Below, in pieces: positions 847 to 61,780 of a DNA stretch of 64,000 bases. Below the pieces are notes generated by a model, which did not search any database, was not told where the DNA came from, and was given only the letters and a program-made list of their open reading frames with translations. Source of the stretch: Patescibacteria group bacterium (GTDB lineage Bacteria; Patescibacteriota; Microgenomatia; UBA12405); contig JAHIPV010000013.1 in NCBI GenBank assembly GCA_018902845.1, positions 18,766-82,765 of the forward strand, read 5' to 3'. A program made the translations under genes and the position numbers. Position 1 is the stretch's first letter. Each line of letters starts with the position of its first letter.

Positions 847-3102
847 ATGAAAACACACAAGAAAGAAATAAAAATAGAAAACAAAACAATTACCATTGAA
901 AGCGGTAAACTAGCTCCTCAAGCCAACGCCTCTGTCACGGCCACTATGGGCAAAACAGTTGTTTTGGCCACGGTTGTTATGGGTTCGGTTGACGAGCACA
1001 AAGATTATTTTCCCCTTTCTGTTCAACTAGTAAACAGACTTTATGCCGGAGGCGTGGTAAAAGGCAGTCGTTGGATCAAAAGAGACATGTATGCTTCAGA
1101 TAATGACACTTTATCAGCCAGGATTATAGACAGAAGCATCAGACCTCTTTTTCCCCAAGGCTTCAAAAACGATATTCAAGTCGTTGTAACCGTTTTAAGC
1201 AATGACAAGGAAACTGATTTTGTTATTCCCGCTTTTATGGCAGTTTCTACTGCTCTTTTGATATCAGATATTCCATTCAACGGTCCGGTTTCAGCCATAA
1301 GAATTTTTAAAGACAAAGATAAGCTTCTCTCTTGTCCGTCTGTAATTCAACTAGACCAGTCGGATTTGGATCTAATAGTTTGTACTGGCCCCGCCGGTGT
1401 TAACATGATCGAGGCCGGTGCCAAAATTGTTGATAACAAAACCATGCTTGGCGCCATTAAACTTGCCAAAAATCTTGGTGAAAATATAAACAAGCAATTA
1501 GTAGAATTCGCCCAACCAATTGCCAAGAAAAAAGCCGAATTCATCCCAGTCTTACCTTCAGAAGACTTAATTAAGCAAATCACTCCTATTCTAAAAAAAG
1601 ATATAAATGATTTCTTTGACAATGGCGGAGATATCAATTCTTTTTCAGCTAAACAAAAAATTATTGACAAGGCCAAAGAAACTTATCTGGACAAAATCAA
1701 ATCAGGAGAAGTTAATGAAAATTTGCTTGTTCATGCAGTCGAGCATCTACTTGAAAAACAGCTTAGAGTAAATGTATTTAACGGTAAACGCTTCGATTCT
1801 CGTCAAGCAGATAAAATTAGGCCATTGGAGATTGACACCTCTATTTTGCCCTGTACTCACGGTTCCGCTATGTTTAAGCGTGGTTTGACCCAGGTTGTTA
1901 CCGTCAGTACCTTAAGTCCATTGTCGGAAAAACTCCACATGGAAGATTCCGGCGGTGAAGGTACAAAACGTTACATGCACTATTATTCAGCCATGCCCTT
2001 TTCAACCGGCCAAACCGGTAGAATTGGCCGTCCTGGTCGCAGAGAAGTTGGTCATGGAGCCTTGGCCGAAAAAGCTTTACTACCAGTCATACCCTCTGAG
2101 GAAGAATTTCCTTATACCATAATCTTAACCTCAGAAATAATGTCACAAAACGGATCTTCTTCTATGGCTTCCACCTGTGGCTCTACCATGTCATTGATGG
2201 ATGCTGGTGTTCCAATAAAAGATAAAGTTGCTGGAATTTCTATTGGAATGATTAGTAATGGAGATAAAAAATTCACTCTTTTAACAGACATTGCCGGAAT
2301 TGAAGACCATTTTGGTGATATGGATTTTAAGATTACCGGTACAAAAACAGGCATTACCGCTATTCAGCTTGATATCAAAAGACAAGGCTTAACAATGGAA
2401 ATGATCGAAAAAACCTTTGAAGCCAGTACAAAAGCCAGGCTTGAAATTCTAAAACAAATGGAAGCAGTTTTGTCAGAACCAAGAAAGGAGTTGTCTGTTT
2501 ATGCTCCCAAGGTTGCCATGCTCAAAATTCCAGAAGACAAAATTGGAGATGTTATTGGTTCAGCCGGTAAAACAATCAAAGGCTTAATGAAAAAATATGG
2601 CGTTCAAGTGGATATAGATGATGATGGTATTGCCTCTGTTTCTTCTGATTCTTTCGACAAAACCAACCAATGTATTAAGGAAATCGAGGCCATGATTAAA
2701 GAAGTTGAGATTGGCGAAGAATACGATGGCATAGTTACTCGAATAGAGGATTATGGTGCTTTTGTTGAATTTTTACCCGGAAGAGAAGCCTTATTGCATG
2801 TTTCTGAATTGAGCCAAGGTTTTGTTTCTGATCCAAACGCTTTAGTAAAAATTGGAGATAAAATTCATATTAAAATAAGCGGGTTTAATGATAATCATCA
2901 GATTAAACTATCAGCTCCCCAGTTTAAAGCAGCTCACCCAGGATCCAGCCAGGGATTAAGTCAGCCTCACGGCCGTTTTAGTGGAAGAACTATTCCTGAT
3001 CAACAATCAAAATTTTTTCCACCAACCAATAAATCCAATTTTAGGAAACCGCCCCTTCGGTCCAACACCAACCGCATTCAATACAAAAATAATAAGTATT
3101 AA
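847..3102 (+). CDS. pnp: Polynucleotide phosphorylase / polyribonucleotide nucleotidyltransferase
   Basis: 751 aa with two RNase PH-like domains, FGDMDFK-type motif, KH and S1 domains at the C-terminus. Conserved rpsO-pnp synteny. Confidence 0.95.
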   Translation: MKTHKKEIKIENKTITIESGKLAPQANASVTATMGKTVVLATVVMGSVDEHKDYFPLSVQLVNRLYAGGVVKGSRWIKRDMYASDNDTLSARIIDRSIRPLFPQGFKNDIQVVVTVLSNDKETDFVIPAFMAVSTALLISDIPFNGPVSAIRIFKDKDKLLSCPSVIQLDQSDLDLIVCTGPAGVNMIEAGAKIVDNKTMLGAIKLAKNLGENINKQLVEFAQPIAKKKAEFIPVLPSEDLIKQITPILKKDINDFFDNGGDINSFSAKQKIIDKAKETYLDKIKSGEVNENLLVHAVEHLLEKQLRVNVFNGKRFDSRQADKIRPLEIDTSILPCTHGSAMFKRGLTQVVTVSTLSPLSEKLHMEDSGGEGTKRYMHYYSAMPFSTGQTGRIGRPGRREVGHGALAEKALLPVIPSEEEFPYTIILTSEIMSQNGSSSMASTCGSTMSLMDAGVPIKDKVAGISIGMISNGDKKFTLLTDIAGIEDHFGDMDFKITGTKTGITAIQLDIKRQGLTMEMIEKTFEASTKARLEILKQMEAVLSEPRKELSVYAPKVAMLKIPEDKIGDVIGSAGKTIKGLMKKYGVQVDIDDDGIASVSSDSFDKTNQCIKEIEAMIKEVEIGEEYDGIVTRIEDYGAFVEFLPGREALLHVSELSQGFVSDPNALVKIGDKIHIKISGFNDNHQIKLSAPQFKAAHPGSSQGLSQPHGRFSGRTIPDQQSKFFPPTNKSNFRKPPLRSNTNRIQYKNNKY

Positions 3103-3103
3103 T

Positions 3104-3154
3104 GTCATCCCGAGCGTAGTCCTTTTGTCATCCCGAGCGTAGCCGAGGGATCTC
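3104..3154. repeat. Dispersed repeat family A, two tandem copies (gtcatcccgagcgtag.. x2) plus hairpin ctcgc-gaat-gcgag
   Basis: gtcatcccgagcgtagtccttttgtcatcccgagcgtagccgagggatctc; same core as copies at 359, 42227, 46392, 49318, 50457, 53293, 54450. Confidence 0.7.
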
Positions 3155-3182
3155 TCGCGAATGCGAGGTATCCGCCTCGTCT

Positions 3183-3210
3183 TTGACAAATCTATCCTGT
3201 AGTATATAAT
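3183..3210 (+). promoter_or_regulatory. Near-consensus sigma70 promoter TTGACA-N16-TATAAT, 6 nt upstream of ATG 3217 (leaderless arrangement)
   Basis: TTGACA 3183-3188, TATAAT 3205-3210, ATG at 3217. Confidence 0.5.
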
Positions 3211-3216
3211 ATTCCT

Positions 3217-3705
3217 ATGCCTACTGGAAAATTTAATGAAGGAAACTGTGTTTTTAGAGCCTTGGAAAATATTTATGAAAATGCGGGACACAACATGGAG
3301 CCAAGAAGTAGTATGCGAACTATCTTAATTCAGGTTTGTCAAAGAAATGTAGGCCCAAATGGCGGTGTCTCAGCGGGGAACGTTACAGTAGAACTTTCAG
3401 AACAAGGATTGACGGTTGGGCCGGTATATGTTCGAGAGTATAAACCCGAAAAACGAAAATGCAAAAAAACAATAGCCCTACAATTACGCCAAGATTTAGC
3501 CAAAGGAGCTCACTTGATGATTACACTAGTACACCCCAAAGGTCCAGTGGGACACGCAGAGCCATTATTTCCATCTGGTGGTCTACTGCCTAGAGATAAA
3601 AGAGAAACAATAAGAATGGCGGCCATGTCACTTAGAAAATATGGAGGTGAAGCACTTTCTTTTCGTCCAATCCAACCCGAAAAAGGAGAAAAGAAGAAAA
3701 GATAA
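3217..3705 (+). CDS. Hypothetical protein (162 aa, Gly/Pro/Arg/Lys-rich), slightly higher GC than surroundings
   Basis: Intact ORF preceded by a consensus promoter. No family recognised. Composition differs from flanking genes. Confidence 0.4.
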   Translation: MPTGKFNEGNCVFRALENIYENAGHNMEPRSSMRTILIQVCQRNVGPNGGVSAGNVTVELSEQGLTVGPVYVREYKPEKRKCKKTIALQLRQDLAKGAHLMITLVHPKGPVGHAEPLFPSGGLLPRDKRETIRMAAMSLRKYGGEALSFRPIQPEKGEKKKR

Positions 3706-3726
3706 AAATAAGCTATACTTTTCTTA

Positions 3727-4788
3727 ATGCCTACTACTAACTCCGAAATAACTCAAGCCATAGAAACACTAGTTGCCAAAACAAAAAGCATCAGGCTCCC
3801 CGACGAGTTACAGAACAAATTAAACGAAATTTTTTCTCACTTAAAAATTTCTTCCAAATCAGAAGACACTTTTTGGCAAAATTATCAAAAAACCTCCAAA
3901 TACATTGAGTGGATTATTGGCCTCCCTTGGTTTAAAGAATCTCAGGATATATTGGATCTTGATTATGCCAGAGAAAAACTTGATGAAAGCCATTACGGCC
4001 TTTCTGAAGTCAAAGAAAGAATACTGGAGCATATTTCTGTTTTGGCTTTGCAAAAAAACCGCCATCCCGATCAAAATCTTCGAGCCCCAATTTTACTTTT
4101 TGTCGGTTTGGTCGGTACAGGCAAAACCACCATGGCTAAGTCCATCGCCACTGTTTTTAACAGAAAATTAATCCGTATTCCCTTTGGAGGCCTTGGAGAT
4201 CCCCTTTACTTAAGGGGCCAATCGCGAGTTCATCCAGAAGCAGAACCAGGCCAAATCATAAAAGGATTAAGAAACGTTGGTGTCAAAAATCCGGTTATTC
4301 TTTTAGACGAAATCGACCGTGTTGCCGACGACGCCTTAAATACCATCATGGGGGTTTTGGTTGAGTTGTTGGATCCTGAACAAAATAGCCGTTTTTCAGA
4401 TCATTTTATTGAATATCCCTTTGATTTATCTCAGGTCTTTTTTGTTGCCACTTGCAATAACACAAAAAGAATTGCCACTGCCGTTTTGGACAGATTAGAA
4501 GTAATTCAAATGCCTTCTTACACTGATGAAGAAAAAATTGCCATTGGTCGCGATTATCTCTTCCCATCTGCCCTTAAAGAATCTGGTCTGAGTAATGATG
4601 AATTGCAAATAAAAGATGCTATCTGGCCTCAAGTGGTTCGCCCTCTTGGCTTTGATGCCGGAGTCAGAACCCTAAAAAGAAACATAGAACGCCTTTGCCA
4701 AAAAACCGCTCGTCTTATATTTGAAGGTAAAATTAAGTCGTTGGTAGTAGATGAATCTAATGTCAAGGAATTCCTACCCAAATGGTAA
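3727..4788 (+). CDS. Lon-family AAA+ ATPase module only (no N-terminal LAN domain, no C-terminal S16 peptidase domain)
   Basis: Matches Lon from the ILDEDHYGL(E/S)xVKERILE segment through Walker A (GLVGTGKTT), Walker B (ILLDEIDR), VLELLDPEQNSRFSDHF, sensor-1 (VATCNN), LDRLEVIQMPSYTDEEK and the GVR sensor-2. ORF ends at the Lon ATPase/protease boundary. Confidence 0.8.
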   Translation: MPTTNSEITQAIETLVAKTKSIRLPDELQNKLNEIFSHLKISSKSEDTFWQNYQKTSKYIEWIIGLPWFKESQDILDLDYAREKLDESHYGLSEVKERILEHISVLALQKNRHPDQNLRAPILLFVGLVGTGKTTMAKSIATVFNRKLIRIPFGGLGDPLYLRGQSRVHPEAEPGQIIKGLRNVGVKNPVILLDEIDRVADDALNTIMGVLVELLDPEQNSRFSDHFIEYPFDLSQVFFVATCNNTKRIATAVLDRLEVIQMPSYTDEEKIAIGRDYLFPSALKESGLSNDELQIKDAIWPQVVRPLGFDAGVRTLKRNIERLCQKTARLIFEGKIKSLVVDESNVKEFLPKW

Positions 4789-5381: not shown

Positions 5382-7160
5382 ATGCAAAATATAAAAAATA
5401 CAATAAACACAAATACACAGCCTAATCAAAGGCCACAAACCAAATTTACTCAAACTTTTAGACCAAAAACAGTTCAGAACTCTGATGCACTCAGAATTAC
5501 TTCTCTGGGTGGTTTTGGCGATGTCACTCAAAATATGTTTGTCTACGAATACGCCCCCAGGGGCGATTTTAAAAAAAGTCAAATAATTATCGTTGATTGT
5601 GGAGTTGGTTTCCCCGAAGAAGACGAGTTTGGTGTAGATCTCCAAATTCCTGATACCAAATATCTGGAAGATAAAAAAAACAGGATACTTGGTATTTTTA
5701 TTACTCACGGTCACGAAGATCATATTGGCGCTCTCCGTTTTATTCTTCCCGTCCTTGGAAAAAACATCCCTATTTACGCTCCAAGATTGGCAACCGCGTT
5801 TATACAGGCTAGATTACAAGAACATGAAATTAGGGCCAAAATACAAATCTATCAAGACAATATGCCCATGAAAGCTGGCCCCTTTTTAGTCGATCCGATT
5901 AGAGTTACTCACTCGATTCCCGATACTTTTCATTTTGCCATTAGTACTCCCATCGGTCTCATTTACCATGGATCCGATTTTAAATTCGACCTTTTTCCGC
6001 TAGATGGCAAGTATTCCGATCTTCGTCATATCGCCCGTGTTGGCAACAACAGCAACGTTCTGTGTCTTTTGTCGGATTGTCTTGGTGCTGATCACCCGGG
6101 TTATTCGCCATCCGAAAGAACCATAGCACAAAACTTTGAAAATGAGATCAAGACCGCCAAGGGTAGGGTATTTGTCACTGCTATCTCAAGCAACATTGTT
6201 CGTTGGGGTCAAGCTATAGAATATGGCAAAAGAGCCGGTCGTAAAATAGTTACCGTTGGTTTTTCTGTTGATAGGGCCATTAGTGTGGCACAAGAGCTTG
6301 GTTATATCAAACTTAACAAGTCAGATATTGTCCCCATAAACAGAATCAAAAATTTTCCCGAGAATCAACTAATCTTTTTGGCTGCTGGATTCGCTGGTCA
6401 ATCCAATTCTGCCTTAAGTAAGATGGTTATGGGAAAGCACAGAATAAAAATTAAATCCAGTGACAAAATTATTTTTTCTGCCCCTGATTATATCCCTGGC
6501 ACCTCCAGTGCTATTTTAAAGATAGTTGACCACCTTTCTAAAATGGGAGCAGAAGTAGTTTATGGGGAGGGAGAAAATATGCATGTTTCTGGTCACGGCT
6601 ATCAAAAAGAATATGCCCTGTTAGCAACCCTTCTCAACTCTAGATACTTGCTTCCAATTGGTGGAAATTACCGCCATGTCAGGGCCTATCAAGGCATGGC
6701 TCTAGATATCGGTTATTCCGCCGATCAATTTATTTCGCCAGATTCAGATGCATCGGTCACTTTTTACGCCAACGGAAAATACGATACCAACCATCACATT
6801 TCTTCAAGAAAAATACTCATCGACGGATTCGGCGTCGGCGATGTTGGAACTACAGTTCTTCGGGATAGACGGCTTTTGGCAGAAGACGGCATGCTTTCTG
6901 TGGTGCTTCTAGTTGATACAAAATCAGCCAGAATGATCAAAGAGCCTTTAGTTTTAAGCAAAGGCTTTGTCTTTATGAAAGAAAACACTCCTCTTATAAA
7001 TCAGCTTAAGCAGGAAGTAAAAAAGAAATTCTCGCAGGTAGCTGGCGATCCCATCAATCTGGATTATGTTCGCGAACAAATCCAAGGCCATTTGGAACAA
7101 ATTGTCTACAAAAAAACCGGCCGTCAGCCCATGATCCTGCCCTTGCTAGTTGAGGTATAA
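5382..7160 (+). CDS. rnj: Ribonuclease J (metallo-beta-lactamase / beta-CASP RNase)
   Basis: ITHGHEDHIGAL motif, beta-CASP region and C-terminal domain. 592 aa. Confidence 0.9.
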   Translation: MQNIKNTINTNTQPNQRPQTKFTQTFRPKTVQNSDALRITSLGGFGDVTQNMFVYEYAPRGDFKKSQIIIVDCGVGFPEEDEFGVDLQIPDTKYLEDKKNRILGIFITHGHEDHIGALRFILPVLGKNIPIYAPRLATAFIQARLQEHEIRAKIQIYQDNMPMKAGPFLVDPIRVTHSIPDTFHFAISTPIGLIYHGSDFKFDLFPLDGKYSDLRHIARVGNNSNVLCLLSDCLGADHPGYSPSERTIAQNFENEIKTAKGRVFVTAISSNIVRWGQAIEYGKRAGRKIVTVGFSVDRAISVAQELGYIKLNKSDIVPINRIKNFPENQLIFLAAGFAGQSNSALSKMVMGKHRIKIKSSDKIIFSAPDYIPGTSSAILKIVDHLSKMGAEVVYGEGENMHVSGHGYQKEYALLATLLNSRYLLPIGGNYRHVRAYQGMALDIGYSADQFISPDSDASVTFYANGKYDTNHHISSRKILIDGFGVGDVGTTVLRDRRLLAEDGMLSVVLLVDTKSARMIKEPLVLSKGFVFMKENTPLINQLKQEVKKKFSQVAGDPINLDYVREQIQGHLEQIVYKKTGRQPMILPLLVEV

Positions 7161-7175
7161 AATTCCCAAAAAGTA

Positions 7176-7204
7176 TTGACAATGTTATCTAAACACACTA
7201 CAAT
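7176..7204 (+). promoter_or_regulatory. Consensus sigma70 promoter TTGACA-N17-TACAAT, 6 nt upstream of the antitoxin ATG
   Basis: TTGACA 7176-7181, 17-nt spacer, TACAAT 7199-7204, ATG at 7211. Confidence 0.6.
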
Positions 7205-7210
7205 ATATAC

Positions 7211-7528
7211 ATGCTGTCAACACAAAGTACCAAAAAACAAACAGATTACCTGCAAGTTCGTCTTGATTCTAAGTTAAAACATGAAGTTACTGATATCCTT
7301 TACCAGCTCGGCATGACACCTTCTCAAGCGGTAAAAATTTTGTTTAGCCAAATTAGCATGCAAAAAGCCCTCCCTCTTGATATTTCAATCCCAACTGAAA
7401 GAATAGAAATACTTTCAGACAAAACAGTAAAAGAAGTGGGGCAAGCTTTAAAAGAAATAGGAGAAGGCGAATATACAGAGATTGACATGAGTGATAAGAA
7501 ACAAGTTAAGAAATTTTTTGGTCTTTAA
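7211..7528 (+). CDS. Type II antitoxin, RelB/DinJ family
   Basis: 105 aa. LQVRLDSKLKHEVTDILYQLGMTPSQAVKILFSQISMQKALPLDISIP matches the DinJ/RelB ribbon-helix-helix antitoxin pattern. 1-nt overlap with the downstream toxin. Confidence 0.7.
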   Translation: MLSTQSTKKQTDYLQVRLDSKLKHEVTDILYQLGMTPSQAVKILFSQISMQKALPLDISIPTERIEILSDKTVKEVGQALKEIGEGEYTEIDMSDKKQVKKFFGL

Positions 7529-7830
7529 TGTTGACATTAAAACATAATCTTCGATTTACAAAGACCTATATCAGGAAATACAAAAAACTAACTAAAAACA
7601 ATAAAAAACTCAAGAAACAAATTTCTAAAACCTTAGAATTACTGTCCTCTGATCCCCGAAATCCAAGCCTAAAATCACACAAAGTATATGCAAAAGAATT
7701 TGGTTTAAGATTGAGTTCTTCGGTCTCAGCAGATCTAAGAGTAATCTGGGATTATGATCAAAACAGTCAATTGATTATTTTGATACTAACCATCGGTACT
7801 CACTCAGGCAAAAATAGGGTCTACAATTAG
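7528..7830 (+). CDS. Type II toxin, RelE/YafQ family mRNA interferase
   Basis: 100 aa with a basic N-terminus. C-terminal ..LRVIWDYDQNSQLIILILTIGTHS resembles the RelE/YafQ ..wrliY..d....l.l.rtGtHs signature. Confidence 0.7.
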   Translation: MLTLKHNLRFTKTYIRKYKKLTKNNKKLKKQISKTLELLSSDPRNPSLKSHKVYAKEFGLRLSSSVSADLRVIWDYDQNSQLIILILTIGTHSGKNRVYN

Positions 7831-7851
7831 TAATTGAGGTATAATTACTCC

Positions 7852-13002: not shown

Positions 13003-14790
13003 ATGACGCCACGAAAACTAAAAGACAAATTTATCGAGTTTTTTCTTTCAAAAAATCACCAAGAAATCCCATCAAGTAGCTTAGTTCCCGAAAACGACCC
13101 AACTACTCTTTTTGTTTCAGCCGGTATTCAGCCGTTAGCTCCATATTTTTTAGGCAAAAAACATCCGGTAGGCTCAAGGTTAGTTAATGTGCAGAAATGT
13201 GTTCGTACCTGTGATATTGACTTAGTAGGGGACGCTTTTCATCACACCTTTTTTGAAATGCTGGGTAACTGGTCTTTGGGAGATTATTTCAAAAAAGAGA
13301 TGATTCCCTGGAGTTTTGAATTTTTAACCAAAGAGTTAAACATCAACGCCGACCATTTATACGCTACCTGTTTTGCCGGCGACAAAGATGCGCCAAAAGA
13401 TAATGTCAGCGCAAATTTTTGGCAAAAACTTGGTATTCCCAAAAAAAGAATTCACTTTTTACCCAAAAAAGAAAACTGGTGGGGTCCTGCTGGTACTACT
13501 GGTCCTTGTGGTCCAGATAGCGAAATGTTTGTTGATATTAGTCCCAACTCTCCGCCAATAGATTTCAAAAAAGGTTGTGATTCCGGTCGTTTTAGAGAAA
13601 TTTGGAACGACGTATTTATCCAATATCTAAAAAACGAAAAAGGAAAATTTGAAAAACTTGTTCAAAACAACATTGATACGGGTATGGGAGTGGAAAGGAA
13701 CATTGCTATATTAAATAGTTTTACTGATCACTACTTAACCGTTATCTGGCAACCAATTATCAAAAAAATAGAAGAAATCTCTGGGGAAAAATATACAACT
13801 GACAATATCCGTCCAATGCGCATTATTGCCGATCATCTTCGTTCTGCCGTTTTTATTATTGCAGATGGTATGCAGCCATCGAACAAAGAAGCTGGTTATG
13901 TTTTACGACGCCTTATCAGAAGGGCAGTCAGACAAGCAAAACTAATTGGCATTGAAAATAATTTTACAGAAAAAATCGGACAAACTGTACTGAATAATCA
14001 GAACAATTATGCCGGCATTTATCCGGAATTAAATCAAAACGCAGATTTAATTTTAGCTACTTTAGAAAATGAAGAAAACAAATTTAGAAAAACACTAAAC
14101 AAAGGCTTGCGTCAAATTCAAAAAATGATATCTTCTGATAAAAAGATAACCGGAAAAGATGCTTTTGATTTATATCAAAACTATGGCTTCCCCTGTGAGA
14201 TGACCAAAGAAGAACTGGAAAAACATGGACTAAAATTTAGTTCAAAAGAATACAAAGAATTTTGTTCGTGTAATTCAGACCACCAAGCAAAGTCTCGCAC
14301 TTTATCAGTAGGAAAATTTAAAAGCGGCTTAGCAGATAATTCAGAAATTATCACTAAATATCACACAACTACTCATCTTCTTAATTCAGCCTTGCGCCAG
14401 GTATTGGGTGATCATGTTTGGCAAGCTGGGTCAAACATCACAAAAGAAAGACTACGTTTTGATTTCGTTCACCAAGACAAATTAACTGACAAAGAAAAAC
14501 AACAAACAGAAGATCTGGTTAATGAAAAAATAAAGAAAGCCCTTCCTGTTTCCTGTCAGACAATGAATATTACTGACGTCAAAAATAACAGTTCAATTGT
14601 TGCAATTTTTGGAGCTAAATATCCTGACAAAGTAACTGTTTATACAATCGGAAATCTCAAAAAATCTTTTTCTAAAGAAGTTTGTACCGGTCCTCATGTA
14701 AAAAATACTTCAGAATTGGGCAGTTTTTGTATTCTTAAAGAAGAATCATGCGGTTCCGGCCGTCGCCGCATCTACGCCAAGCTAATGTAA
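13003..14790 (+). CDS. alaS: Alanyl-tRNA synthetase, shortened form (595 aa; lacks C-Ala domain and beta-barrel linker)
   Basis: Catalytic motifs (FVSAGIQP.., HHTFFEMLGNWSLGDYFK, GPCGPDSEMF) and editing motifs (HTTTHLL at about 454-458, CTGPHV at about 567). About 280 aa shorter than canonical AlaRS. Confidence 0.9.
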   Translation: MTPRKLKDKFIEFFLSKNHQEIPSSSLVPENDPTTLFVSAGIQPLAPYFLGKKHPVGSRLVNVQKCVRTCDIDLVGDAFHHTFFEMLGNWSLGDYFKKEMIPWSFEFLTKELNINADHLYATCFAGDKDAPKDNVSANFWQKLGIPKKRIHFLPKKENWWGPAGTTGPCGPDSEMFVDISPNSPPIDFKKGCDSGRFREIWNDVFIQYLKNEKGKFEKLVQNNIDTGMGVERNIAILNSFTDHYLTVIWQPIIKKIEEISGEKYTTDNIRPMRIIADHLRSAVFIIADGMQPSNKEAGYVLRRLIRRAVRQAKLIGIENNFTEKIGQTVLNNQNNYAGIYPELNQNADLILATLENEENKFRKTLNKGLRQIQKMISSDKKITGKDAFDLYQNYGFPCEMTKEELEKHGLKFSSKEYKEFCSCNSDHQAKSRTLSVGKFKSGLADNSEIITKYHTTTHLLNSALRQVLGDHVWQAGSNITKERLRFDFVHQDKLTDKEKQQTEDLVNEKIKKALPVSCQTMNITDVKNNSSIVAIFGAKYPDKVTVYTIGNLKKSFSKEVCTGPHVKNTSELGSFCILKEESCGSGRRRIYAKLM

Positions 14791-14796
14791 CCAATC

Positions 14797-15033
14797 TTAA
14801 TCACTATCAGAAGCAACTTCATCCCGCACTATTTCCACTCGAACTCCAGTTCCTTGACCTATTGTAATCCCCCTGCCGGGAACATCGGTGACGATCTCAA
14901 GCGACAGAAGGTCCTCTCTCGCCTCTTTCGCTCTGTGGACCCTGATTGTTACAGTCTCTCCTCTGGTAATACCCTGAACACTCATATAAACATCTCTGGC
15001 AACCTCTTTAGCTGTTTGGTTATCTACTTTCAT
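14797..15033 (-). CDS. Small hypothetical protein (78 aa), GC-rich relative to surroundings, antisense to neighbours
   Basis: Start MKVDNQ.. lies 12 nt downstream of a TATAAT -10 (minus strand, + coords 15046-15051). Gene sequence about 50% GC. No family recognised. Confidence 0.4.
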   Translation of the reverse strand: MKVDNQTAKEVARDVYMSVQGITRGETVTIRVHRAKEAREDLLSLEIVTDVPGRGITIGQGTGVRVEIVRDEVASDSD

Positions 15034-15194
15034 ACCTATAACATCATTATAATACAAATCGAACAGCAGCTCAAGCACTGGCTAGATTTGTTTTGTTTTA
15101 GATACTTTTTTGTCTCTCGTAATAATATAGCAGGATTATTTGGAAGTTTAGATATTAGATTTCAAATCTACTTACAATGTTGTATTCTTAATTA

Positions 15195-17249
15195 ATGAAA
15201 CAAAAGAATACAAACAGGTTTTGGCTTCTTAATATCAAAGATACACATCTCTCGGTTTCTTTAGTTTTTGTTTCAGAAGTCATGTCCGATGGAATTCTCT
15301 CAAGCCATAAGCAGGAGTGGAAAGAAGAAGATTTCATAAATTCTGTCGATATTTGCGTTTCTGATTGTTTAAGGCAGGATTCTTCCCCAGAAATTGACCA
15401 AACAGACTCGATCGCCTTTATTCTTCCACCTGACTGGGTCGCCAGCGACGGAAAGATAATCGATGATAAACAAAAATTAATCAAATCTCTTTGTAAAAAG
15501 ATGGACCTTAAACCAATGGGTTTTCTGGCAAGCAACGAGGCTATAGTTGAAGAATTAAATCATAAAGAAGGATCTCCTGTTAGCCTAATTTTAATCAACA
15601 TAGAAAACAATATTGCTGACTTTTCTATAGTTTATTCGGGAAAAATAAAAAACAATTTTAAAAAAACAATTTTAGAAAAATCATCTTTGCCTGCTTTGAT
15701 TGAAAATAGCCTTAGAGAATTAAATTTTGATTTTGTTCTGCCACCACAAATTCTGCTTTGGGGAGATAAGGATTTTGATTTTAGCCAAGATCTCAAAAAT
15801 TATGCCTGGACAGATAAAGAAGGAAAAAATATCTTTACCCATTTTCCCAAAATTGATTTTTACGACACTGAACAAATAAATCAATTTTTTATAAAAATCA
15901 TTACAAAACAAATTGGGTTAGACCTAGAAACCGTCAAAACCCCAAAAAACGACACTTTAAGCCAGCCTCGTTTTTCCGATTTAAAAGAAGTTGATCCCCT
16001 AAGCCTAGGTTTTGACAAAGACCACCATTCTTTACCTCCAACAAAAGAATTTTCTGAAAAAATCAAAAAACCAAAGTTTAAGTTAAAACTTTGGTTTCCT
16101 ACTTTTCCAAAATTAAAATTTCCAAAAATTTTCTCACGTTTTTCCGTTTTATTATTATTTTTCTTTTTTACAACAATTTTTCTTTTTTGGCTTTTTTCTT
16201 ATAAAAGTGTCTTGACCGTTTTTGTTACACCATATAAGTTTGATCAAAAATTGCCGTCTACTCTTGACACCTCGGCAAAAGATTTTGATCCAAATGAAAA
16301 AATTATCCCTGCCCAAGAAATAGAGATAAAATTTTCCACTTCTGCCACCGTAAAAACCACTGGACAGAAATTAGTAGGGGAAAGGGCTAGGGGGGAATTG
16401 CTTGTTTTTAACAAAACCGATCAGGACAAAACTCTACCGGCAGGTTCTATTTTAGTGGACGCCAATCAGCTGGAATTTAAACTATTAGATGATGTCAAAG
16501 TATCGTCCAGCAGTCCGGACCTCGATCAGGGAATAATAACTCTTGGTCAGGGCAAAGTAATGGCCTCTGCCGTTGATATCGGTCCGGCTGGTAATTTAAA
16601 CAAAGATACTCTTTTAACATTCAAAGAATTTCCTTCAAGCGATTTAGTTGTCAAGACAAATCAAGTTTTTGCCGGAGGAAGTAGTCGGCAGGTTAGTAGT
16701 GTTGGCAGTGAAGATAGAAAAGAGGTAAAGCAAAAAATAGACGAAAAAGTTCAAGAAATTTTACAACAAAAGAAAGACGAAAGCATCGATAAGCTTAACA
16801 ATTTACTGCCCGGAACCACATTTATAGATCAAGAAAGGATAAGTTACGATCGTGAAATAGGCGAAGAGACCGACGAACTATCGGCCTCGGTTGATATCAC
16901 CATGCATATTTTTTCAATAAATGCAAAAGTAAAAAACGACATTATAAAATACATGCTTCAGTCAAATACCGATCCGTCTACCCTTGATCTGGAAAATAGC
17001 CAATTTCAATTTGATTACAAAGATAAAAATCTTTTATTGACTGGGACATCACTGCCTAAAATAAACACTACAAACTTAGCAAAAAAATTAGTTTTAAAAA
17101 ATCCAAATAAAATTACAGAAACACTTAAGTCAGAATCCACTCGTGTATATGATTTTAATCTGCAATCCAAGCCAGCCATTTTTAAAAATTTTCCTATATT
17201 ACCAGCAAGATCAGATATGATCTATTTAGAAATTAAAACCGAAGAATAA
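15195..17249 (+). CDS. Hypothetical bitopic membrane protein (684 aa: cytoplasmic N-domain, TM at about aa 320-345, large extracytoplasmic C-domain)
   Basis: One strongly hydrophobic segment (LLLFFFFTTIFLFWLF). N-domain is weakly reminiscent of the FtsA/PilM fold. Immediately followed by a sortase gene. Confidence 0.6.
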   Translation: MKQKNTNRFWLLNIKDTHLSVSLVFVSEVMSDGILSSHKQEWKEEDFINSVDICVSDCLRQDSSPEIDQTDSIAFILPPDWVASDGKIIDDKQKLIKSLCKKMDLKPMGFLASNEAIVEELNHKEGSPVSLILINIENNIADFSIVYSGKIKNNFKKTILEKSSLPALIENSLRELNFDFVLPPQILLWGDKDFDFSQDLKNYAWTDKEGKNIFTHFPKIDFYDTEQINQFFIKIITKQIGLDLETVKTPKNDTLSQPRFSDLKEVDPLSLGFDKDHHSLPPTKEFSEKIKKPKFKLKLWFPTFPKLKFPKIFSRFSVLLLFFFFTTIFLFWLFSYKSVLTVFVTPYKFDQKLPSTLDTSAKDFDPNEKIIPAQEIEIKFSTSATVKTTGQKLVGERARGELLVFNKTDQDKTLPAGSILVDANQLEFKLLDDVKVSSSSPDLDQGIITLGQGKVMASAVDIGPAGNLNKDTLLTFKEFPSSDLVVKTNQVFAGGSSRQVSSVGSEDRKEVKQKIDEKVQEILQQKKDESIDKLNNLLPGTTFIDQERISYDREIGEETDELSASVDITMHIFSINAKVKNDIIKYMLQSNTDPSTLDLENSQFQFDYKDKNLLLTGTSLPKINTTNLAKKLVLKNPNKITETLKSESTRVYDFNLQSKPAIFKNFPILPARSDMIYLEIKTEE

Positions 17250-17250
17250 C

Positions 17251-17994
17251 TTGTCATATCTATACGTTAAGAAAATTACTCCCAAGAGTCAAAAACGGAA
17301 AAAAAAACATCACCCCAAAATAACAAAAAAAATGTTATTAGCTATTTCTTTTTTTATTTTTGGTTCTTTATTGCTTTTTTCAGTTATATTTCCAATACTT
17401 AATTTTCAGTTAAAATACTCCTCTCGTTTTAACCCGATTAGTTCCCCTCTTTCGGCAAAATTTTATAACAAAAGTTCTAGCATTTTGGGAGAGGTAAACA
17501 CTGATTACACTCAACTTAATAATTGGTTCACAAAAAATTCCAACAGCAAAGATATTGATTCCGCACCTGAACATGGTAATCCTAGCTCTTATGAACTTTC
17601 TATACCAATCCTTAAAATTGAAAATGCTAATGTGGTTGTTGGTGGAACTGACTTGAAAAAAAGTCTAATACAGTATCCACAAACAGCCTTACCCGGTCAA
17701 ATCGGTAATGCCGTAATTTTTGGCCATTCGGTCTTACCTCAATTTTTTAATCCAAAATCATATGTAACCATTTTTTCAACTCTTTTTAAGCTAAAGCAGG
17801 GAGACGAAATTTATGCTACTTTTGATAACATAAAATACAAATATTTAGTTGAAGAAATGTTTGAAATTCTACCGACAGATCTTTCCATATTAGAACAAAG
17901 ATTTGACGGTCGTTATCTAACTATTGTGACTTGTAGTCCGCCAGGAACCTATATTCGTCGCTTAATAATCAAGGCCAAAATAGTAGATATTTAA
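17251..17994 (+). CDS. Sortase-family transpeptidase
   Basis: N-terminal TM anchor, catalytic His region (IGNAVIFGHS) and TLxTC motif (LTIVTCSPPG). Confidence 0.8.
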   Translation: MSYLYVKKITPKSQKRKKKHHPKITKKMLLAISFFIFGSLLLFSVIFPILNFQLKYSSRFNPISSPLSAKFYNKSSSILGEVNTDYTQLNNWFTKNSNSKDIDSAPEHGNPSSYELSIPILKIENANVVVGGTDLKKSLIQYPQTALPGQIGNAVIFGHSVLPQFFNPKSYVTIFSTLFKLKQGDEIYATFDNIKYKYLVEEMFEILPTDLSILEQRFDGRYLTIVTCSPPGTYIRRLIIKAKIVDI

Positions 17995-39097: not shown

Positions 39098-39117
39098 CAA
39101 TTATTTATAAATTATTT

Positions 39118-39149
39118 GGAAATTTAGATTTTAAATTTTAGATTTAATT
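39118..39149. repeat. Dispersed repeat family B copy 1 (ggaaatttagattttaaattttagatttaatt), ends 3 nt before rpsC ATG
   Basis: Near-identical copies at 41999, 49410, 59613. Confidence 0.7.
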
Positions 39150-39152
39150 AAT

Positions 39153-41438: not shown

Positions 41439-41990
41439 ATGCTAAAACAACAATTTAAACAAAAAATTCAAAAAGAACTTTGGCAAAAGTTAAACAAAGG
41501 CAATATTAATGCCGTACCCATGCTTCAAAAAGTAGTCATTAATTGTCGAGTACAGGGAGCCAAAGAAAATAAAGAAATTCTTGAGCTGGCGGGAGTCGAA
41601 TTAATGGCCCTAACAGGGCAAAAACCAAAACTTTGTTGTGCCAAAAAATCAGAGGCCAGTTTCAAATTAAGAGAGGGCGACCCCTTAGCACTCAAAATTA
41701 CATTGCGAAGTGGCAAAATGTATGATTTTGTCGAAAAATTATTCAACCTGGTTTTACCAAGATTAAGGGATTTTCGTGGCTTATCGGCCAATTCATTTGA
41801 CAATGGGGCCAATTACAATCTTGTTATAAAAGATCAAACATATTTTCCTGAAATTAACCTTGACAAAGTTAAGCAAATTAGATCGGTTCAGGTGACCCTC
41901 GTTACCAGCACCTCTTCAAAAGAGGAGGCAAAAATGTTATTATCCGCCCTAGGCTTACCATTTAAAAAAGAAGACAAAGAAAGTAATTAA
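41439..41990 (+). CDS. rplE: 50S ribosomal protein L5
   Basis: ..RLRDFRGLSANSFDNGANYNLVIKDQTYFPEI.. L5 signature. Confidence 0.93.
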   Translation: MLKQQFKQKIQKELWQKLNKGNINAVPMLQKVVINCRVQGAKENKEILELAGVELMALTGQKPKLCCAKKSEASFKLREGDPLALKITLRSGKMYDFVEKLFNLVLPRLRDFRGLSANSFDNGANYNLVIKDQTYFPEINLDKVKQIRSVQVTLVTSTSSKEEAKMLLSALGLPFKKEDKESN

Positions 41991-41998
41991 TTTTATTT

Positions 41999-42029
41999 GG
42001 AAATTTAGATTTTAAATTTGTGATTTATC
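41999..42029. repeat. Dispersed repeat family B copy 2, ends 3 nt before rpsN ATG
   Basis: ggaaatttagattttaaatttgtgatttatc. Confidence 0.7.
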
Positions 42030-42032
42030 AAT

Positions 42033-42218: not shown

Positions 42219-42226
42219 CAAAATCC

Positions 42227-42262
42227 GTCATCCTGAGCTTGCCGAAGGATCCCGTCGGAATT
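42227..42262. repeat. Dispersed repeat family A copy (cgtcatcctgagcttgccgaaggatcccgtcggaatt), followed by an (AAAAATT)n tract at 42262-42300
   Basis: Nearly identical to the copy embedded in the 3' end of rplM (50457-50484). Confidence 0.7.
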
Positions 42263-46384: not shown

Positions 46385-46391
46385 CTATCTC

Positions 46392-46461
46392 GTCATTCTG
46401 AACAAAGTGAAGAATCCCAACGGGATCCTTCGTCCAATTGATCGGACTCAGGATGACGACA
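46392..46461. repeat. Dispersed repeat family A copy with inverted terminal half (gtcattctgaacaaagtgaagaatcccaacgggatccttcgtcc ... ggactcaggatgacgac)
   Basis: 5' half nearly identical to copy at 359-383. 3' end carries the reverse complement of the GTCATCCTGAG core. Confidence 0.7.
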
Positions 46462-49317: not shown

Positions 49318-49356
49318 CGTCATCCCGAGCGCGGTCGAGGGATCCCGTGGGGAATT
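49318..49356. repeat. Dispersed repeat family A copy (cgtcatcccgagcgcggtcgagggatcccgtggggaatt), followed by AT-heptamer tract and a family-B copy
   Basis: Composite 167-bp rpoA-rplQ spacer. Confidence 0.7.
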
Positions 49357-49409
49357 GTAAAAATTTATTAAAAATTAAAAATTAGAGATTAAAAAAGTTT
49401 AAAAATTTT

Positions 49410-49441
49410 GGAAATTTAGATTTTAAATTTTGAATTTAATT
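49410..49441. repeat. Dispersed repeat family B copy 3, ends 2 nt before rplQ ATG
   Basis: ggaaatttagattttaaattttgaatttaatt. Confidence 0.7.
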
Positions 49442-49443
49442 AT

Positions 49444-50028
49444 ATGCGTCATCGAAAATTCGGCAAAAAACTAGGAAGAAATCATCATCAACGAAAAGCT
49501 TTACTCAAAAGTTTGGTTAGGGCTGTTTTTACTCATGGTAGTATTAATACCACCATGGCAAAGGCAGAGGCAGTCTCTCCCTTAATAGAAAAAATCTGCA
49601 CTAGAATAAAAAAAGCAGACTTAAGTAGCAAAAGATATCTATATAGATATCTTCAGGACAGAAAATGGGTAAAAATAGTTGAGGAAGCTTTTTTAAAAGT
49701 TTTTCCGGACAGAAATTCAAATTTCCTAAAAATTTCTAAAGTTAAAAAAAGACAAGGAGACGATGCCACAATAGTTAACTTAGCTTTTGTCAAAACTGTT
49801 TCTTTTAATGTAGGGGAGACCCTTGCGGTCGCCCGCAAAAAAACAAAAGAAAGCTTAAGTTCAAAAAATTTATTAGGGCTCAAAAACAAGCTAAAGCGCA
49901 GTTCGTTTCAGGCAAAACAAAAGCAACAATCGTCTGTAGGAACAACTTTTGCAGTCGCTCGCAAAAATATAAAAATGAAAAAGAAAACAAGTCAGAGCGA
50001 ACTTACTCGAAGGGGAAAATCTAAATGA
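49444..50028 (+). CDS. rplQ: 50S ribosomal protein L17 with 76-aa C-terminal extension built from two copies of repeat family C
   Basis: L17 core in aa 1-118 (MRHRKFGKKLGRNHHQRKALLKSLV..). Extension contains in-frame gtaggggagacccttgcggtcgcccgcaaaaaaac (49810-49844) and gtaggaacaacttttgcagtcgctcgcaaaaatataaaaatg (49936-49977). Confidence 0.88.
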   Translation: MRHRKFGKKLGRNHHQRKALLKSLVRAVFTHGSINTTMAKAEAVSPLIEKICTRIKKADLSSKRYLYRYLQDRKWVKIVEEAFLKVFPDRNSNFLKISKVKKRQGDDATIVNLAFVKTVSFNVGETLAVARKKTKESLSSKNLLGLKNKLKRSSFQAKQKQQSSVGTTFAVARKNIKMKKKTSQSELTRRGKSK

Positions 50029-50492
50029 AAAAGATAACAACCATAAAACCAATAAAAGACATCAAAAGATATTGGCATTTCATCGACCTAGAAGGCCAAA
50101 CTCTTGGTCGCATTAGCACAAAAATTGCCAAACTTTTAACCGGAAAGGATAAGGTCCAATTTTGTTATCATCACGATTGGGGAGATTATGTCATCGCTGT
50201 TAATTCTAATAAAATAAAAACTACAGGTAAAAAGCTAAAAGACAAAATTTATTATCGTCATTCTGGTTACGCTGGCAATTTAAAAGAAATTCAATTAAAA
50301 GACTTGATGAAAAAAGATTCCAGAAAAGTTATTTATGCATCGGTTTATGGAATGGTAGCCAAAAACAAATTACGAAAACCAAGAATGCGAAGATTAAAAA
50401 TCTTTAAAACCGCAGATCATCCTTATCAAGGCAAGCTTAAAGGTTTATCTCCCAAGCGTCATCCTGAGCTTGCCGAAGGATCACAAAAATAA
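50025..50492 (+). CDS. rplM: 50S ribosomal protein L13 with C-terminal tail encoded by a repeat-A copy
   Basis: L13 core (..YWHFIDLEGQTLGRISTKIAKLL.GK..). Last 12 codons (KRHPELAEGSQK) are the in-frame repeat cgtcatcctgagcttgccgaaggatcac at 50457-50484. Confidence 0.9.
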   Translation: MKKITTIKPIKDIKRYWHFIDLEGQTLGRISTKIAKLLTGKDKVQFCYHHDWGDYVIAVNSNKIKTTGKKLKDKIYYRHSGYAGNLKEIQLKDLMKKDSRKVIYASVYGMVAKNKLRKPRMRRLKIFKTADHPYQGKLKGLSPKRHPELAEGSQK

Positions 50493-50495
50493 TTT

Positions 50496-53292: not shown

Positions 53293-53367
53293 CATCCTGA
53301 GTTTTCACCGTCATCCTGAGTGATCCGCCAACTGGCGGAGACCGAAGGATCCCGTCGGATTTTCCCC
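53293..53367. repeat. Repeat family A cluster (partial copy catcctgag + full copy with internal hairpin ccgcca-ac-tggcgg)
   Basis: agcatcctgagttttcaccgtcatcctgagtgatccgccaactggcggagaccgaaggatcccgtcgg. Confidence 0.7.
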
Positions 53368-54449: not shown

Positions 54450-54588
54450 GTCATCCCGAGCGCAGTCGAGGGATCTCCCCGGAATTTAAACTTCCATTTG
54501 GGATTCTTCTCCGCCAACTGGCGGATCAGAATGACGCCTTTCTCCCACCCGTCATCCTGAGTGAGTTTTACGACCGAAGGATCCCATC
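54450..54588. repeat. Repeat family A cluster: forward copy, inverted half-copy (ggcggatcagaatgacgcc) and second forward copy, with ccgccaactggcgg hairpin
   Basis: gtcatcccgagcgcagtcgagggatctcc ... ccgccaactggcggatcagaatgacg ... cgtcatcctgagtgagttttacgaccgaaggatcccatc. Confidence 0.7.
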
Positions 54589-55501
54589 AATATTCTTCCC
54601 ACTCAATGTTCTTTTTCGCCCATTCAAGTAATTGCAAAGTATCCGCAAATCGATCCTCACTTTGCGCCACCACACTAATCAATCTGTGTCCTTCTATGTT
54701 TAACAATCCCGCAAAACATCCACCAGCCTCCGGTGTCCACCCGGTCTTCAGCCCTTCAACTTCTGGCACTGTTTCCAGTAATTCATTTGTATTAAGCAGT
54801 AAGTGTTCCGTGCCATTCCTGCTTGTTATTTTTAATTCTTTAATTTTTACTGTTTCTGTCACTGTTTTATTTTTAATTGCCAATCGTGCCACCTGAGCTA
54901 AATCATAAACAGTTGAATAGTGATTTTCGTCATGTATGCCGTCGTAATTAACAAAATTACTATCCTCTAATCCATTTTTTTTCAAAATTCCATTCATTTC
55001 TTTAACAAAACCATCCACTCCATTTTTGTGTTGTTTAGCCAAAACAAAAGCCGCATCATTGGCAGAATGAACCAACAAAGCCTTTACCAGATCTCTTATG
55101 CTTAATTTTTCTCCCACCTTAAGCTCCATTACCTTTCCATTTTCGTATTCTGTATCTATCTCTATAATTTCATCCAGGGGATAAATATTTAAAGCGGTTA
55201 GTGCTGTGATTAACTTTGTAGTGGAAGCCGGATAAATTCTTTCTTTTTCTTTTTTGCTTATCAAAATAGTATTTGTTTCTGTATCTAGGAGAATAAAAGC
55301 TTTAGCACTCAAAACAGGGGTAAAATTGGTTTTATTTTTTGTTACTGGTATTAATGGGTGTTGGTAATTGGCAAAGACGTTATTTTCTTTTCTTGTTTGT
55401 ATTGCCCTGCGGTCTAGATTAGAAACAATTAAATTAAACCACAAAAAAAATCCCAGTCCGCCTCCTAAAAAAATCAAAATCCTACTACGCTTTTTTCGCA
55501 T
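54587..55501 (-). CDS. D-alanyl-D-alanine carboxypeptidase (S11 family, PBP5/6-like)
   Basis: SxxK (ASTTK), SxN (HSANDAA), KTG (KTGWT) motifs, N-terminal TM. Confidence 0.85.
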   Translation of the reverse strand: MRKKRSRILIFLGGGLGFFLWFNLIVSNLDRRAIQTRKENNVFANYQHPLIPVTKNKTNFTPVLSAKAFILLDTETNTILISKKEKERIYPASTTKLITALTALNIYPLDEIIEIDTEYENGKVMELKVGEKLSIRDLVKALLVHSANDAAFVLAKQHKNGVDGFVKEMNGILKKNGLEDSNFVNYDGIHDENHYSTVYDLAQVARLAIKNKTVTETVKIKELKITSRNGTEHLLLNTNELLETVPEVEGLKTGWTPEAGGCFAGLLNIEGHRLISVVAQSEDRFADTLQLLEWAKKNIEWEEY

Positions 55502-57287: not shown

Positions 57288-57447
57288 TTCTTCCTAGTCT
57301 ACCACAGCCACGCTCGATTTCAGACACCAACTTATTGCCCGACTCTCACCCTTGTATGTCCAGATCGTCTATCTATCAACAATGGCAAATGTCGTATTCT
57401 CTTATCCAAAACATTTTTAAAAAACATCAAAAAACCTCTCAAAATCA

Positions 57448-57810
57448 TTATCGTGCATACGGATTTTGCTTTCGTGCAGTACCTCTTTTCACTCTGACAC
57501 GCTCTCTTTTTCTAGTAAAGTATTCCACATTATCACCAACGCTACTTCTTTGGACTATTTTTTTATAGCTCTTAGCTAACAAGATGGCCCCTCTTCTTCC
57601 GGTAAACTCAGTTGGATTAGTTTCTATTGCAACCCTTGTCATTGTGGGAGATCCAAGTTCGGCATGATACTCTGTCTTCAATCTAACATCTGCTTCTGCC
57701 CAATCGTTCATTCCATGTCTTGCCATTAATTTATCGCGAACAGGAAATCCCGTCTCCGTTCTAACTCTCGATACTCTATCTCGTCCTAATTTGTAATCAT
57801 TTCTAAACAT
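57448..57810 (-). CDS. Small basic hypothetical protein (120 aa), GC-richer than surroundings, leaderless-type promoter
   Basis: Start MFRNDYKLGRD.. 8 nt downstream of an extended -10 TGcTATAAT (minus strand; + coords 57819-57827) with TTGACT -35 (57840-57845). No family recognised. Confidence 0.45.
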   Translation of the reverse strand: MFRNDYKLGRDRVSRVRTETGFPVRDKLMARHGMNDWAEADVRLKTEYHAELGSPTMTRVAIETNPTEFTGRRGAILLAKSYKKIVQRSSVGDNVEYFTRKRERVRVKRGTARKQNPYAR

Positions 57811-57818
57811 AACCCACA

Positions 57819-57845
57819 TTATAGCACACAAGTTGATAAAGTCAA
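57819..57845 (-). promoter_or_regulatory. Promoter TTGACT-N15-TGcTATAAT for the 57810 gene
   Basis: See previous feature. Confidence 0.5.
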
Positions 57846-57908
57846 TTCTTTACATAGGTCACAGACATTTTCAACATTCGGTCTTGTTCTGTTATTAATA
57901 ATTGACGT

Positions 57909-59537: not shown

Positions 59538-59612
59538 TTACTCATTCTATCAACTTATGATTTTAAAATGTTTGTCAGTAATGACAATATTAAATAATTT
59601 TGGGTTTAATTT

Positions 59613-59643
59613 GGAAATTTAGATTTTTGATTTCAGATTTATC
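59613..59643. repeat. Dispersed repeat family B copy 4 in the recJ / RRM-gene divergent spacer
   Basis: ggaaatttagatttttgatttcagatttatc. Confidence 0.6.
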
Positions 59644-59819
59644 TTCTCATTGCTTTTCCTTTTCGTTCTGTTATACTTAACCCCAGAACTCAGATACATA
59701 GTTATTTTAACTGGGTTCTGTTATAAGGATTCATTTTTAAACTGTAGTATCAAGAAATTTCCTTTTTTGTTTCTCTGTTATTTTGCGTCCTTAATTTATA
59801 AGTTCAAAAGTAAAAAAAA

Positions 59820-60287: not shown

Positions 60288-60363
60288 AAATTCTTTTCTG
60301 TAAATTTAAACACCCCGATTCATCGGGGTGTTTTTGTTGGCCTAAATAAGCTAAAATCAAATC

Positions 60364-61725: not shown

Positions 61726-61739
61726 CTTGTAGGGGCGAC

Positions 61740-61780
61740 CCTTGCGATCGCCCGCAAAATATAAAAATGTCAAACAACAA
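61740..61780. repeat. Repeat family C copy 3, overlapping the ABC-transporter start codon
   Basis: tgtaggggcgacccttgcgatcgcccgcaaaatataaaaatg. Its 5' half matches 49810-49844 and its 3' half (caaaaatataaaaatg) matches 49962-49977, both inside rplQ. Confidence 0.7.

Follow-up and report, generated by a model that had tools for sequence, protein, structure and literature searches.

Here, we describe three small open reading frames (ORFs), A, B and C, in a 64-kb stretch of a Patescibacteria (candidate phyla radiation, CPR) metagenome-assembled genome (MAG), a stretch referred to below as the window, and argue that A and C, and possibly B, are probably lineage-specific accessory genes without detectable relatives that are translated from leaderless or near-leaderless mRNAs. 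In the mechanism that we propose, each ORF would be transcribed from its own sigma-70-type promoter, translation would start by direct recognition of the 5'-terminal AUG by the ribosome, and small promoter-bearing genes of this kind would be exchanged in narrow slots between housekeeping genes. All three ORFs are genuine protein-coding genes with native codon usage, and the segments that hold A and C are absent from related lineages whose flanking genes align with those of the window.

A first-pass annotation of the same DNA had presented the three as a set of horizontally acquired or highly expressed small proteins, with a shared promoter architecture and an atypical composition as its marks. 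The view of them as real genes behind strong promoters has been borne out, but neither the set nor the foreign composition has survived: the proteins are unrelated to one another, and the promoter layout turns out to be common in the window. As regards A, B and C the outcome is modest: they are protein genes that belong to no family or system and whose composition is not evidence of foreign origin.

Promoters and predicted leaderless starts

The three ORFs and their promoter hexamers are present at the coordinates given in the first-pass annotation (Table 1). The promoter of A, TTGACA-N16-TATAAT-N6-ATG, is exactly as described there; that of C has the reported hexamers TTGACT and TATAAT, but the gap to the ATG measures seven nucleotides rather than eight, and its spacer carries a TG at -15/-14; and for B the reported TATAAT-N12-ATG holds, while a -35 hexamer, TTGAGC, at 17-nt spacing had been overlooked. 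The pattern TTGACW-N15-18-TATAAT occurs twice in the 64 kb, exactly at A and C, against an expectation of 0.14, and only one of 100 shuffles reached two matches. Four intergenic promoters of the window agree with at least 11 of the 12 consensus positions; they precede A, relB, C and rpoB, and the -10 box stands 6-7 nt before the ATG in those of A, relBE and C, whereas that of rpoB has a 63-nt leader.

Table 1. Coordinates of the three ORFs, their promoters, the variable segments and the relBE insertion
Feature	Position	Strand	Description
ORF A	3217-3705	+	162 aa, basic, isoelectric point (pI) 9.9; NCBI: hypothetical protein KKC08_01065
ORF B	14797-15033	-	78 aa, mildly acidic, pI 5.1, valine-rich
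ORF C	57448-57810	-	120 aa, very basic, pI 10.8, 16% Arg
Promoter A	3183-3210	+	-35 TTGACA 3183-3188, N16, -10 TATAAT 3205-3210, N6, ATG 3217; 12/12 consensus
Promoter B	15046-15074	-	-35 TTGAGC 15074-15069, N17, -10 TATAAT 15051-15046, N12, ATG 15033; 10/12 consensus
Promoter C	57818-57845	-	-35 TTGACT 57845-57840, N16, -10 TATAAT 57823-57818, N7, ATG 57810; 11/12 consensus
Variable segment, pnp-AAA spacer	3104-3707		REP-like repeats, promoter and ORF A
Variable segment, recJ-aspS spacer	57311-57914		ORF C and promoter
relBE insertion	7150-7844	+	Toxin-antitoxin operon 7211-7830; Pfam RelB and ParE/YafQ matches

In A, B and C the stretch from -18 to -4 is free of GGAG, GAGG, AGGA and AAGG, which agrees with the earlier statement that no Shine-Dalgarno motif lies upstream of any of them. 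Transcription in bacteria usually starts about 7 nt downstream of the -10 hexamer, so the mRNAs of A and C are predicted to begin at, or within 1 nt of, the AUG. The earlier proposal that the start codon coincides with the transcription start is thus retained, by promoter layout, for A and C, but not for B, where N12 implies a leader of about 5-6 nt. We infer leaderless mRNAs for A and C and a near-leaderless one for B, whose short leader would hold no usable Shine-Dalgarno sequence. Because the -35 boxes of A and C are near-perfect, as are the -10 boxes, strong constitutive expression is predicted for both, as for relBE, and the two genes are probably highly expressed.

The close spacing of -10 box and start codon extends well beyond these genes. 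In a survey of -10 hexamers (at least five of six positions matched) before the 33 operon-first genes of the window, those with an upstream spacer of at least 40 nt, the hexamers peak 6 nt (seven genes) and 7 nt (two genes) before the start, every other distance being represented three times or fewer. Nine of the 33 genes therefore have a hexamer at 6-7 nt, compared with 3.8% of ATGs overall and with 6 of 81 intergenic ATGs that are not starts. The genes so placed include relB (7211), ftsK (9621), alaS (13003), recJ (57909-59537, minus strand) and those at 51821 (minus strand), 53402 and 60364, and proS makes a tenth case, with its ATG at 7852 behind TATAAT-N6. Shine-Dalgarno 5-mers precede 10% of starts, compared with 4% of random 15-mers. 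As a -10 box 6-7 nt from the start is common in the window, preceding ftsK, alaS, proS, recJ, relB and others, this layout does not mark a special gene set, contrary to the reading of it as an architecture shared by A, B and C; A and C differ from most of their neighbours only by the additional near-perfect -35 box.

This geometry recalls the genomes that GeneMarkS-2 places in its leaderless 'group C', in which a Pribnow box lies 6-8 nt before the starts of operon-first genes and no Shine-Dalgarno sequence is present (PMC6028130), and which is typified by Actinobacteria and Deinococcus-Thermus (PMC6028130). The window resembles them in the -10 peak close to the start (6-7 nt here) and in the scarcity of Shine-Dalgarno motifs, and differs in phylum, Patescibacteria/CPR; its putative class assignment is made from sequence geometry. 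The group C spacing is found at A (N6) and C (N7), but not at B (N12). The source genome appears to rely largely on leaderless or Shine-Dalgarno-independent initiation, core genes included. We found no description of widespread leaderless starts in CPR/Patescibacteria in the limited set of literature searched, which is not proof of novelty. Leaderless starts in core genes such as ftsK, alaS, proS and recJ would affect both start-codon calling and the prediction of expression in CPR MAGs, and calling ORFs from the first possible start can misplace a leaderless start, as at proS, where the first in-frame start, TTG 7834, is almost certainly wrong and the version beginning there is not in the protein collection.

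A conserved A+T-rich module of 43 nt, TTTGGAAATTTAGATTTTAAATTT.AGATTTA.TTA, was also observed at five places (15132-15174, 39108-39150, 41989-42031, 49400-49442 and 59603-59645). It reads TTGGAA-N17-TAGATT-N8-ATG, with an ATG within about 10 nt in three copies (39153, about 42034 and 49444), of which those at 39153 and 49444 are starts of further genes. The module possibly serves as a leaderless promoter or operator common to several genes.

Variable slots between core genes

The window is rich in housekeeping genes, among them rpsO-pnp, a pair of the size of rpoB/rpoC, an apparent ribosomal-protein cluster and several aminoacyl-tRNA synthetase genes. ORF A lies between pnp (847-3102, +) and a gene for a Lon-like AAA+ ATPase (3727-4788, +), B between alaS (13003-14790, +) and the gene for a 684-aa protein (15195-17249, +), and C between recJ (59537-57909, -) and aspS (57287-55485, -). 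Two of the three had been described as antisense to all neighbours; in fact A runs in the same direction as pnp and the AAA gene, C in that of recJ and aspS, and only B is opposite in strand to its neighbours, convergent with respect to alaS and divergent with respect to the gene at 15195.

Contigs from related lineages were reached through a metagenome scan anchored on RecJ and through variants in the 90% clusters of the flanking proteins, and were aligned to the window with blastn; a contig scan anchored on ProRS returned distant organisms only (Finegoldia, Apilactobacillus and others). The flanking genes are 82-90% identical in nucleotide sequence right up to the edges of the slots, and nothing aligns inside the slots of A and C. 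In three contigs (L014, L015 and L016) the alignment through pnp (84.8%) breaks off at position 3103 and resumes only at 3708, with the AAA gene (84.3%); in a fourth (L009) the match to recJ (88.3%) stops at 57915 and that to aspS (82.5%) begins at 57310, again with a blank interval. A, relative to the first three, and C, relative to L009, are presence/absence polymorphisms at conserved syntenic sites, which supports placing them in a variable, presumably exchanged part of the genome.

The same slots hold other contents elsewhere. In L009 the recJ-aspS spacer is occupied by an XRE-type helix-turn-helix (HTH) gene and an unrelated 90-aa ORF behind TATAAT-N7-ATG, and L016 has a DUF5678 and aspartyl-protease pair between the AAA gene and udg that the window is without. 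An apparent N-terminal resemblance of C to the L009 slot ORF (RDRV...FPV), and of A to an ORF in the L014 slot, was dropped: permutation tests gave z values of 0.10 and 0.03, no different from those of negative controls, so occupants of the same slot show no protein similarity.

The neighbouring relBE operon is a further module of this kind. It has its own promoter, TTGACA-N17-TACAAT-N6-ATG (7176-7204), and is flanked by an 11-nt direct repeat, TTGAGGTATAA, at 7150-7160 and 7834-7844; the operon is absent from L016, and TTGAGGTATAA is single-copy at that empty site. Both the stop codon of rnj and the -10 box of proS fall within the target, and the repeat reads as a clear target-site duplication of the relBE insertion. 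The slots of A and C match this pattern of a lineage-variable module inserted between core genes, and A and C belong, on this synteny evidence, to a flexible complement of small genes that carry their own promoters. Exchange of slot contents at strain level, with one clear target-site duplication, gives a tractable view of gene turnover in very small genomes.

The likeness to type II toxin-antitoxin systems such as relBE consists in small genes with their own strong promoter that vary between lineages and sit between housekeeping genes. A, B and C differ in that each is a single ORF amid housekeeping genes, with no partner, no two-gene toxin-antitoxin architecture and no match to a toxin, antitoxin or defence family; and whereas relBE has a flanking target duplication, none has been demonstrated for A, B or C. 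Both ORF A and the downstream AAA gene begin with the 9-nt ATGCCTACT (3217-3225 and 3727-3735), behind the -10-like boxes TATAAT-N6 (A) and TATACT-N7 (AAA gene). A target duplication around A is not established by this pair, given that 19% of comparable flank pairs share a repeat of 9 nt or more and that the AAA promoter is ancestral to both lineages; it could be the scar of the event that placed ORF A, or chance. At the third locus a 12-nt direct repeat, TTGTATTCTTAA, brackets the region of ORF B, with one copy inside the 3' end of alaS (14727-14738) and the other just before the ATG at 15195 (15180-15191).

A further variable slot was seen near 60364, where a 98%-identical strain (L010, positions 464-863) carries about 400 nt that are absent from the window's spacer before the gene at that position (about 60344-60386).

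Proteins without detectable relatives

The three ORFs are deposited in public collections as 'hypothetical protein', under the tags KKC08_01065, KKC08_01000 and KKC08_04395. Each protein matches only its own cluster at 90% identity or more among 5.8 billion clusters. An exhaustive HMMER search with A over 1.84 billion representatives added just two matches, both rejected as artefacts in which a short, weak match is repeated in tandem-repeat proteins and so inflates the score. No match to A, B or C turned up in Pfam (to E<=10), NCBIfam, PHROGs or PADLOC, in accord with the first-pass view that none is recognisable as a known family; a tblastn search of phage records was equally blank, and among PDB sequences nothing was significant, the best being eS28 for B at E=0.48. 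Foldseek matched the model of B only at E>1.

An OTU-type or papain-like cysteine protease identity was also considered for A, the lead being an EGNCVFRAL motif, similar to the catalytic-cysteine motif of OTU proteases, with a downstream GHAEP. Neither Pfam nor PDB sequences gave a match (both to E<=10), the AlphaFold model was unusable, and the candidate was dropped as hardly credible.

The three proteins are thus ORFan hypothetical proteins, short, without homologues beyond near-identical strains and lodged in variable regions between core genes, and show no essential difference from that class; worth noting besides is that the best promoters of the 64 kb belong to A and C. A role of addiction, defence or regulatory type is plausible because the other slot occupants (relBE, the XRE-HTH gene and the DUF5678/protease pair) are modules of that sort, and we would guess that the three belong, as small accessory proteins, to a mobile, addiction or defence-type gene pool. 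Being basic, A and C might bind nucleic acid.

Coding potential and the possibility of non-functional frames

Coding potential was scored with a codon log-likelihood model trained on 60 window genes and evaluated by leave-one-out. Known genes scored 0.253 +/- 0.061 bits/codon in frame and -0.39 off frame, and the correct frame was the best of six in 60 of 60. A, B and C scored 0.239, 0.351 and 0.197 bits/codon, respectively, with the annotated frame the best of six and far above the others, and in all three, as in native genes, the third codon position is lower in G+C than the first two. All plus-strand frames across ORF B score negative, so the plus-strand ORF that overlaps it (14854-15195) is spurious. 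The two genes in the L009 slot scored 0.28 and 0.31.

Several points weigh against our reading of these ORFs as accessory genes. A known-spurious antisense ORF in the window reaches 0.214 bits/codon, so the codon score by itself is not decisive for C. AlphaFold without an alignment gave a mean predicted local distance difference test (pLDDT) of 33 for A and 57 for B, values compatible with disordered or non-functional products, and no diverged homologue of A, B or C was found in the databases searched. ORF A, between a conserved promoter and the AAA operon, could be an ORF within a long leader. The contigs retrieved for B (L001 and L018) are of the same strain, 99.8-99.99% identical, and are uninformative on slot variability, and B is only possibly a lineage-specific accessory gene like the other two. 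Finally, leaderless transcription is a prediction from the spacing of promoter and start codon.

The strongest alternative is one that we nevertheless hold to be unlikely: the ORFs would be transcribed but non-functional, as chance or decaying frames in long leaders or in junk inserted between genes, A for example in the leader of the AAA-udg-rnj operon, with the conserved promoter upstream driving it. Apart from the missing homologues, the lack of a confident fold and the score of the antisense ORF, it can draw on the pnp-AAA slot of L014, where the promoter has been kept with a 63-aa ORF behind it that has no coding signal (0.015 bits/codon) and that NCBI does not call as a gene. Against it, the codon scores of all three fall within the range of real genes and far above the other five frames, and the AUGs stand at the exact leaderless distance used by housekeeping genes. 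A, moreover, occupies nearly the whole extent of its variable segment with its AUG-to-stop frame, and an open frame of its 162 codons is expected by chance only about 0.07 times in 64 kb of such composition (an estimate); it is also present in identical form on 16 contigs from several samples. Small accessory genes remain, for these reasons, the reading that we prefer.

Conserved promoters and new coding sequences

The L014 slot bears on how such genes might arise. It contains a REP-like (repetitive extragenic palindromic) repeat and a promoter homologous to that of the window (62% identity, z=6.3), and the sequence behind that promoter is unrelated to the window's (z=-1.0). A speculative extension of the accessory-gene reading, to which we give rather little credence, is that CPR spacers contain fixed 'expression docks', conserved strong leaderless promoters behind which orphan coding sequences are swapped in or born de novo; a 5'-terminal AUG would suffice for translation, and any sequence arriving behind the promoter would be expressed at once. 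If true, genomes otherwise under strong reduction would have here a simple means of producing new small proteins and putting them to the test.

The narrower proposal that A, B and C themselves were born de novo, or have diverged until unrecognisable, where a strong promoter and a 5' AUG were already in place seems to us improbable. It fits the conserved promoter at locus A with unrelated sequence behind it, non-coding in one lineage, as well as the failure of an exhaustive search to find relatives and the fact that translation without a Shine-Dalgarno sequence is the norm here. Codon scores equal to those of established genes are, however, unexpected in very young genes, and no ancestral non-coding homologue of the sequence of A or C was found. 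At locus C, furthermore, the whole spacer has been replaced, promoter included, and relBE demonstrates wholesale insertion of promoter-bearing modules.

Composition and the question of a foreign donor

All three genes had been called visibly higher in G+C than their surroundings. Against a window G+C of 36.2%, and ranked among windows of the same length, this is true of B (46.4%, z=2.08, 98th percentile), but not of A (41.1%, z=1.33, 90th percentile) or C (40.2%, z=0.97, 82nd percentile). G+C at third codon positions (GC3) is 0.276 in A and 0.289 in C, compared with a window gene mean of 0.307 +/- 0.039, and is borderline in B at 0.380 (about +1.9 sd). The excess in A and C sits in codon positions 1 and 2, and the three proteins have a Gly/Ala/Arg/Pro (GARP) fraction of 0.27-0.33, as against 0.20 in housekeeping proteins, and are poor in Phe, Tyr, Met, Ile, Asn and Lys (FYMINK) residues. 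The raised G+C is therefore due to the Gly/Ala/Arg/Pro-rich makeup of the proteins and not to foreign codon usage.

Recent horizontal acquisition from a compositionally different, G+C-richer donor is accordingly an explanation that we rate as slightly weaker still than birth in place. The absence of the A and C segments from relatives, the GARP-rich proteins and the GC3 of B speak for it, but the GC3 of A and C does not exceed the native mean, their codon usage fits the native model as well as that of housekeeping genes does, the z values for overall G+C reach only 1.3 (A) and 1.0 (C), and no donor homologue appears in the 5.8 billion clusters or in phage records. Atypical composition, taken earlier as a sign of foreign origin, gives no such sign, with native-like GC3 in A and C and codon scores in the native range, and composition does not speak for a donor richer in G+C. 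The data are compatible with exchange inside the same low-G+C lineage or with its mobile elements, but not with a G+C-rich donor.

Structured RNA as an alternative

Across the 64-kb window no match attains the gathering score of any Rfam family, and sensitive Rfam scans of the three loci (E<=1) produced a single junk match to a long non-coding RNA, at 20.9 bits against a 50-bit threshold, so that no match to RNase P RNA, transfer-messenger RNA (tmRNA), signal recognition particle (SRP) RNA or 6S RNA spans any of them. ARAGORN found neither a tRNA nor a tmRNA in the window. Relative to dinucleotide shuffles the fold-energy z values are +1.24 (A), +0.88 (B) and +0.65 (C), with 76-93 of 100 shuffles folding at least as well. 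The alternative offered with the first-pass annotation, that structured RNA genes (for RNase P RNA, tmRNA, SRP RNA, 6S RNA or a novel RNA) on stable-RNA promoters have been misread as ORFs, is refuted by the Rfam result, the weak folding and the native, frame-specific codon usage with its native GC3, together with the length of the 162-codon frame, and we regard it as very improbable even though the strongest promoters often drive stable RNAs, protein homologues are lacking and G+C is somewhat raised.

Repeats and neighbouring genes

Two families of intergenic repeats were noticed in passing. The first, REP-like, has the form GTCATCCCGAGCG...GAGGGATC, with the variant CGTCATCCTGAGC...GAAGGATC, at 3104-3152, 49319-49344 and 54450-54475, and related copies lie at 42223-42262, 46388-46427, 50454-50493 and 53323-53362. 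At least three copies stand just past stop codons, namely those of pnp, of the gene ending at 49276 and of the gene ending at 54442, and several of the public contigs with ORF A start some 55-95 nt upstream of it, near the REP-like repeat; these repeats might be terminators or recombination sites. The second family is a G+C-rich hairpin, TGTAGGGGCGACCCTTGCGGTCGCCCGC, at 49809-49848, 49935-49974 and 61728-61767 in the window and at 4110-4141 in L014; two copies fall inside the ORF 49444-50028, one lies directly upstream of the gene at 61767, and that in L014 follows pnp.

Two of the genes flanking the ORFs have features of their own. The AspRS-type class II synthetase next to ORF C (55485-57287, -) ends in a YbaK/ProX-type editing domain (PF04073, residues 468-587, E=1.2e-27), a fusion that looks unusual for an Asp/Asn-type enzyme and that is kept in L009. 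The 684-aa protein encoded from 15195 onward, beside ORF B, has a Baseplate_J-like match below threshold (E=5e-4; 19.9 bits, cutoff 21.1 bits); a sortase gene directly follows its gene (region 15195-17994), and the protein may be a sortase-anchored surface protein.

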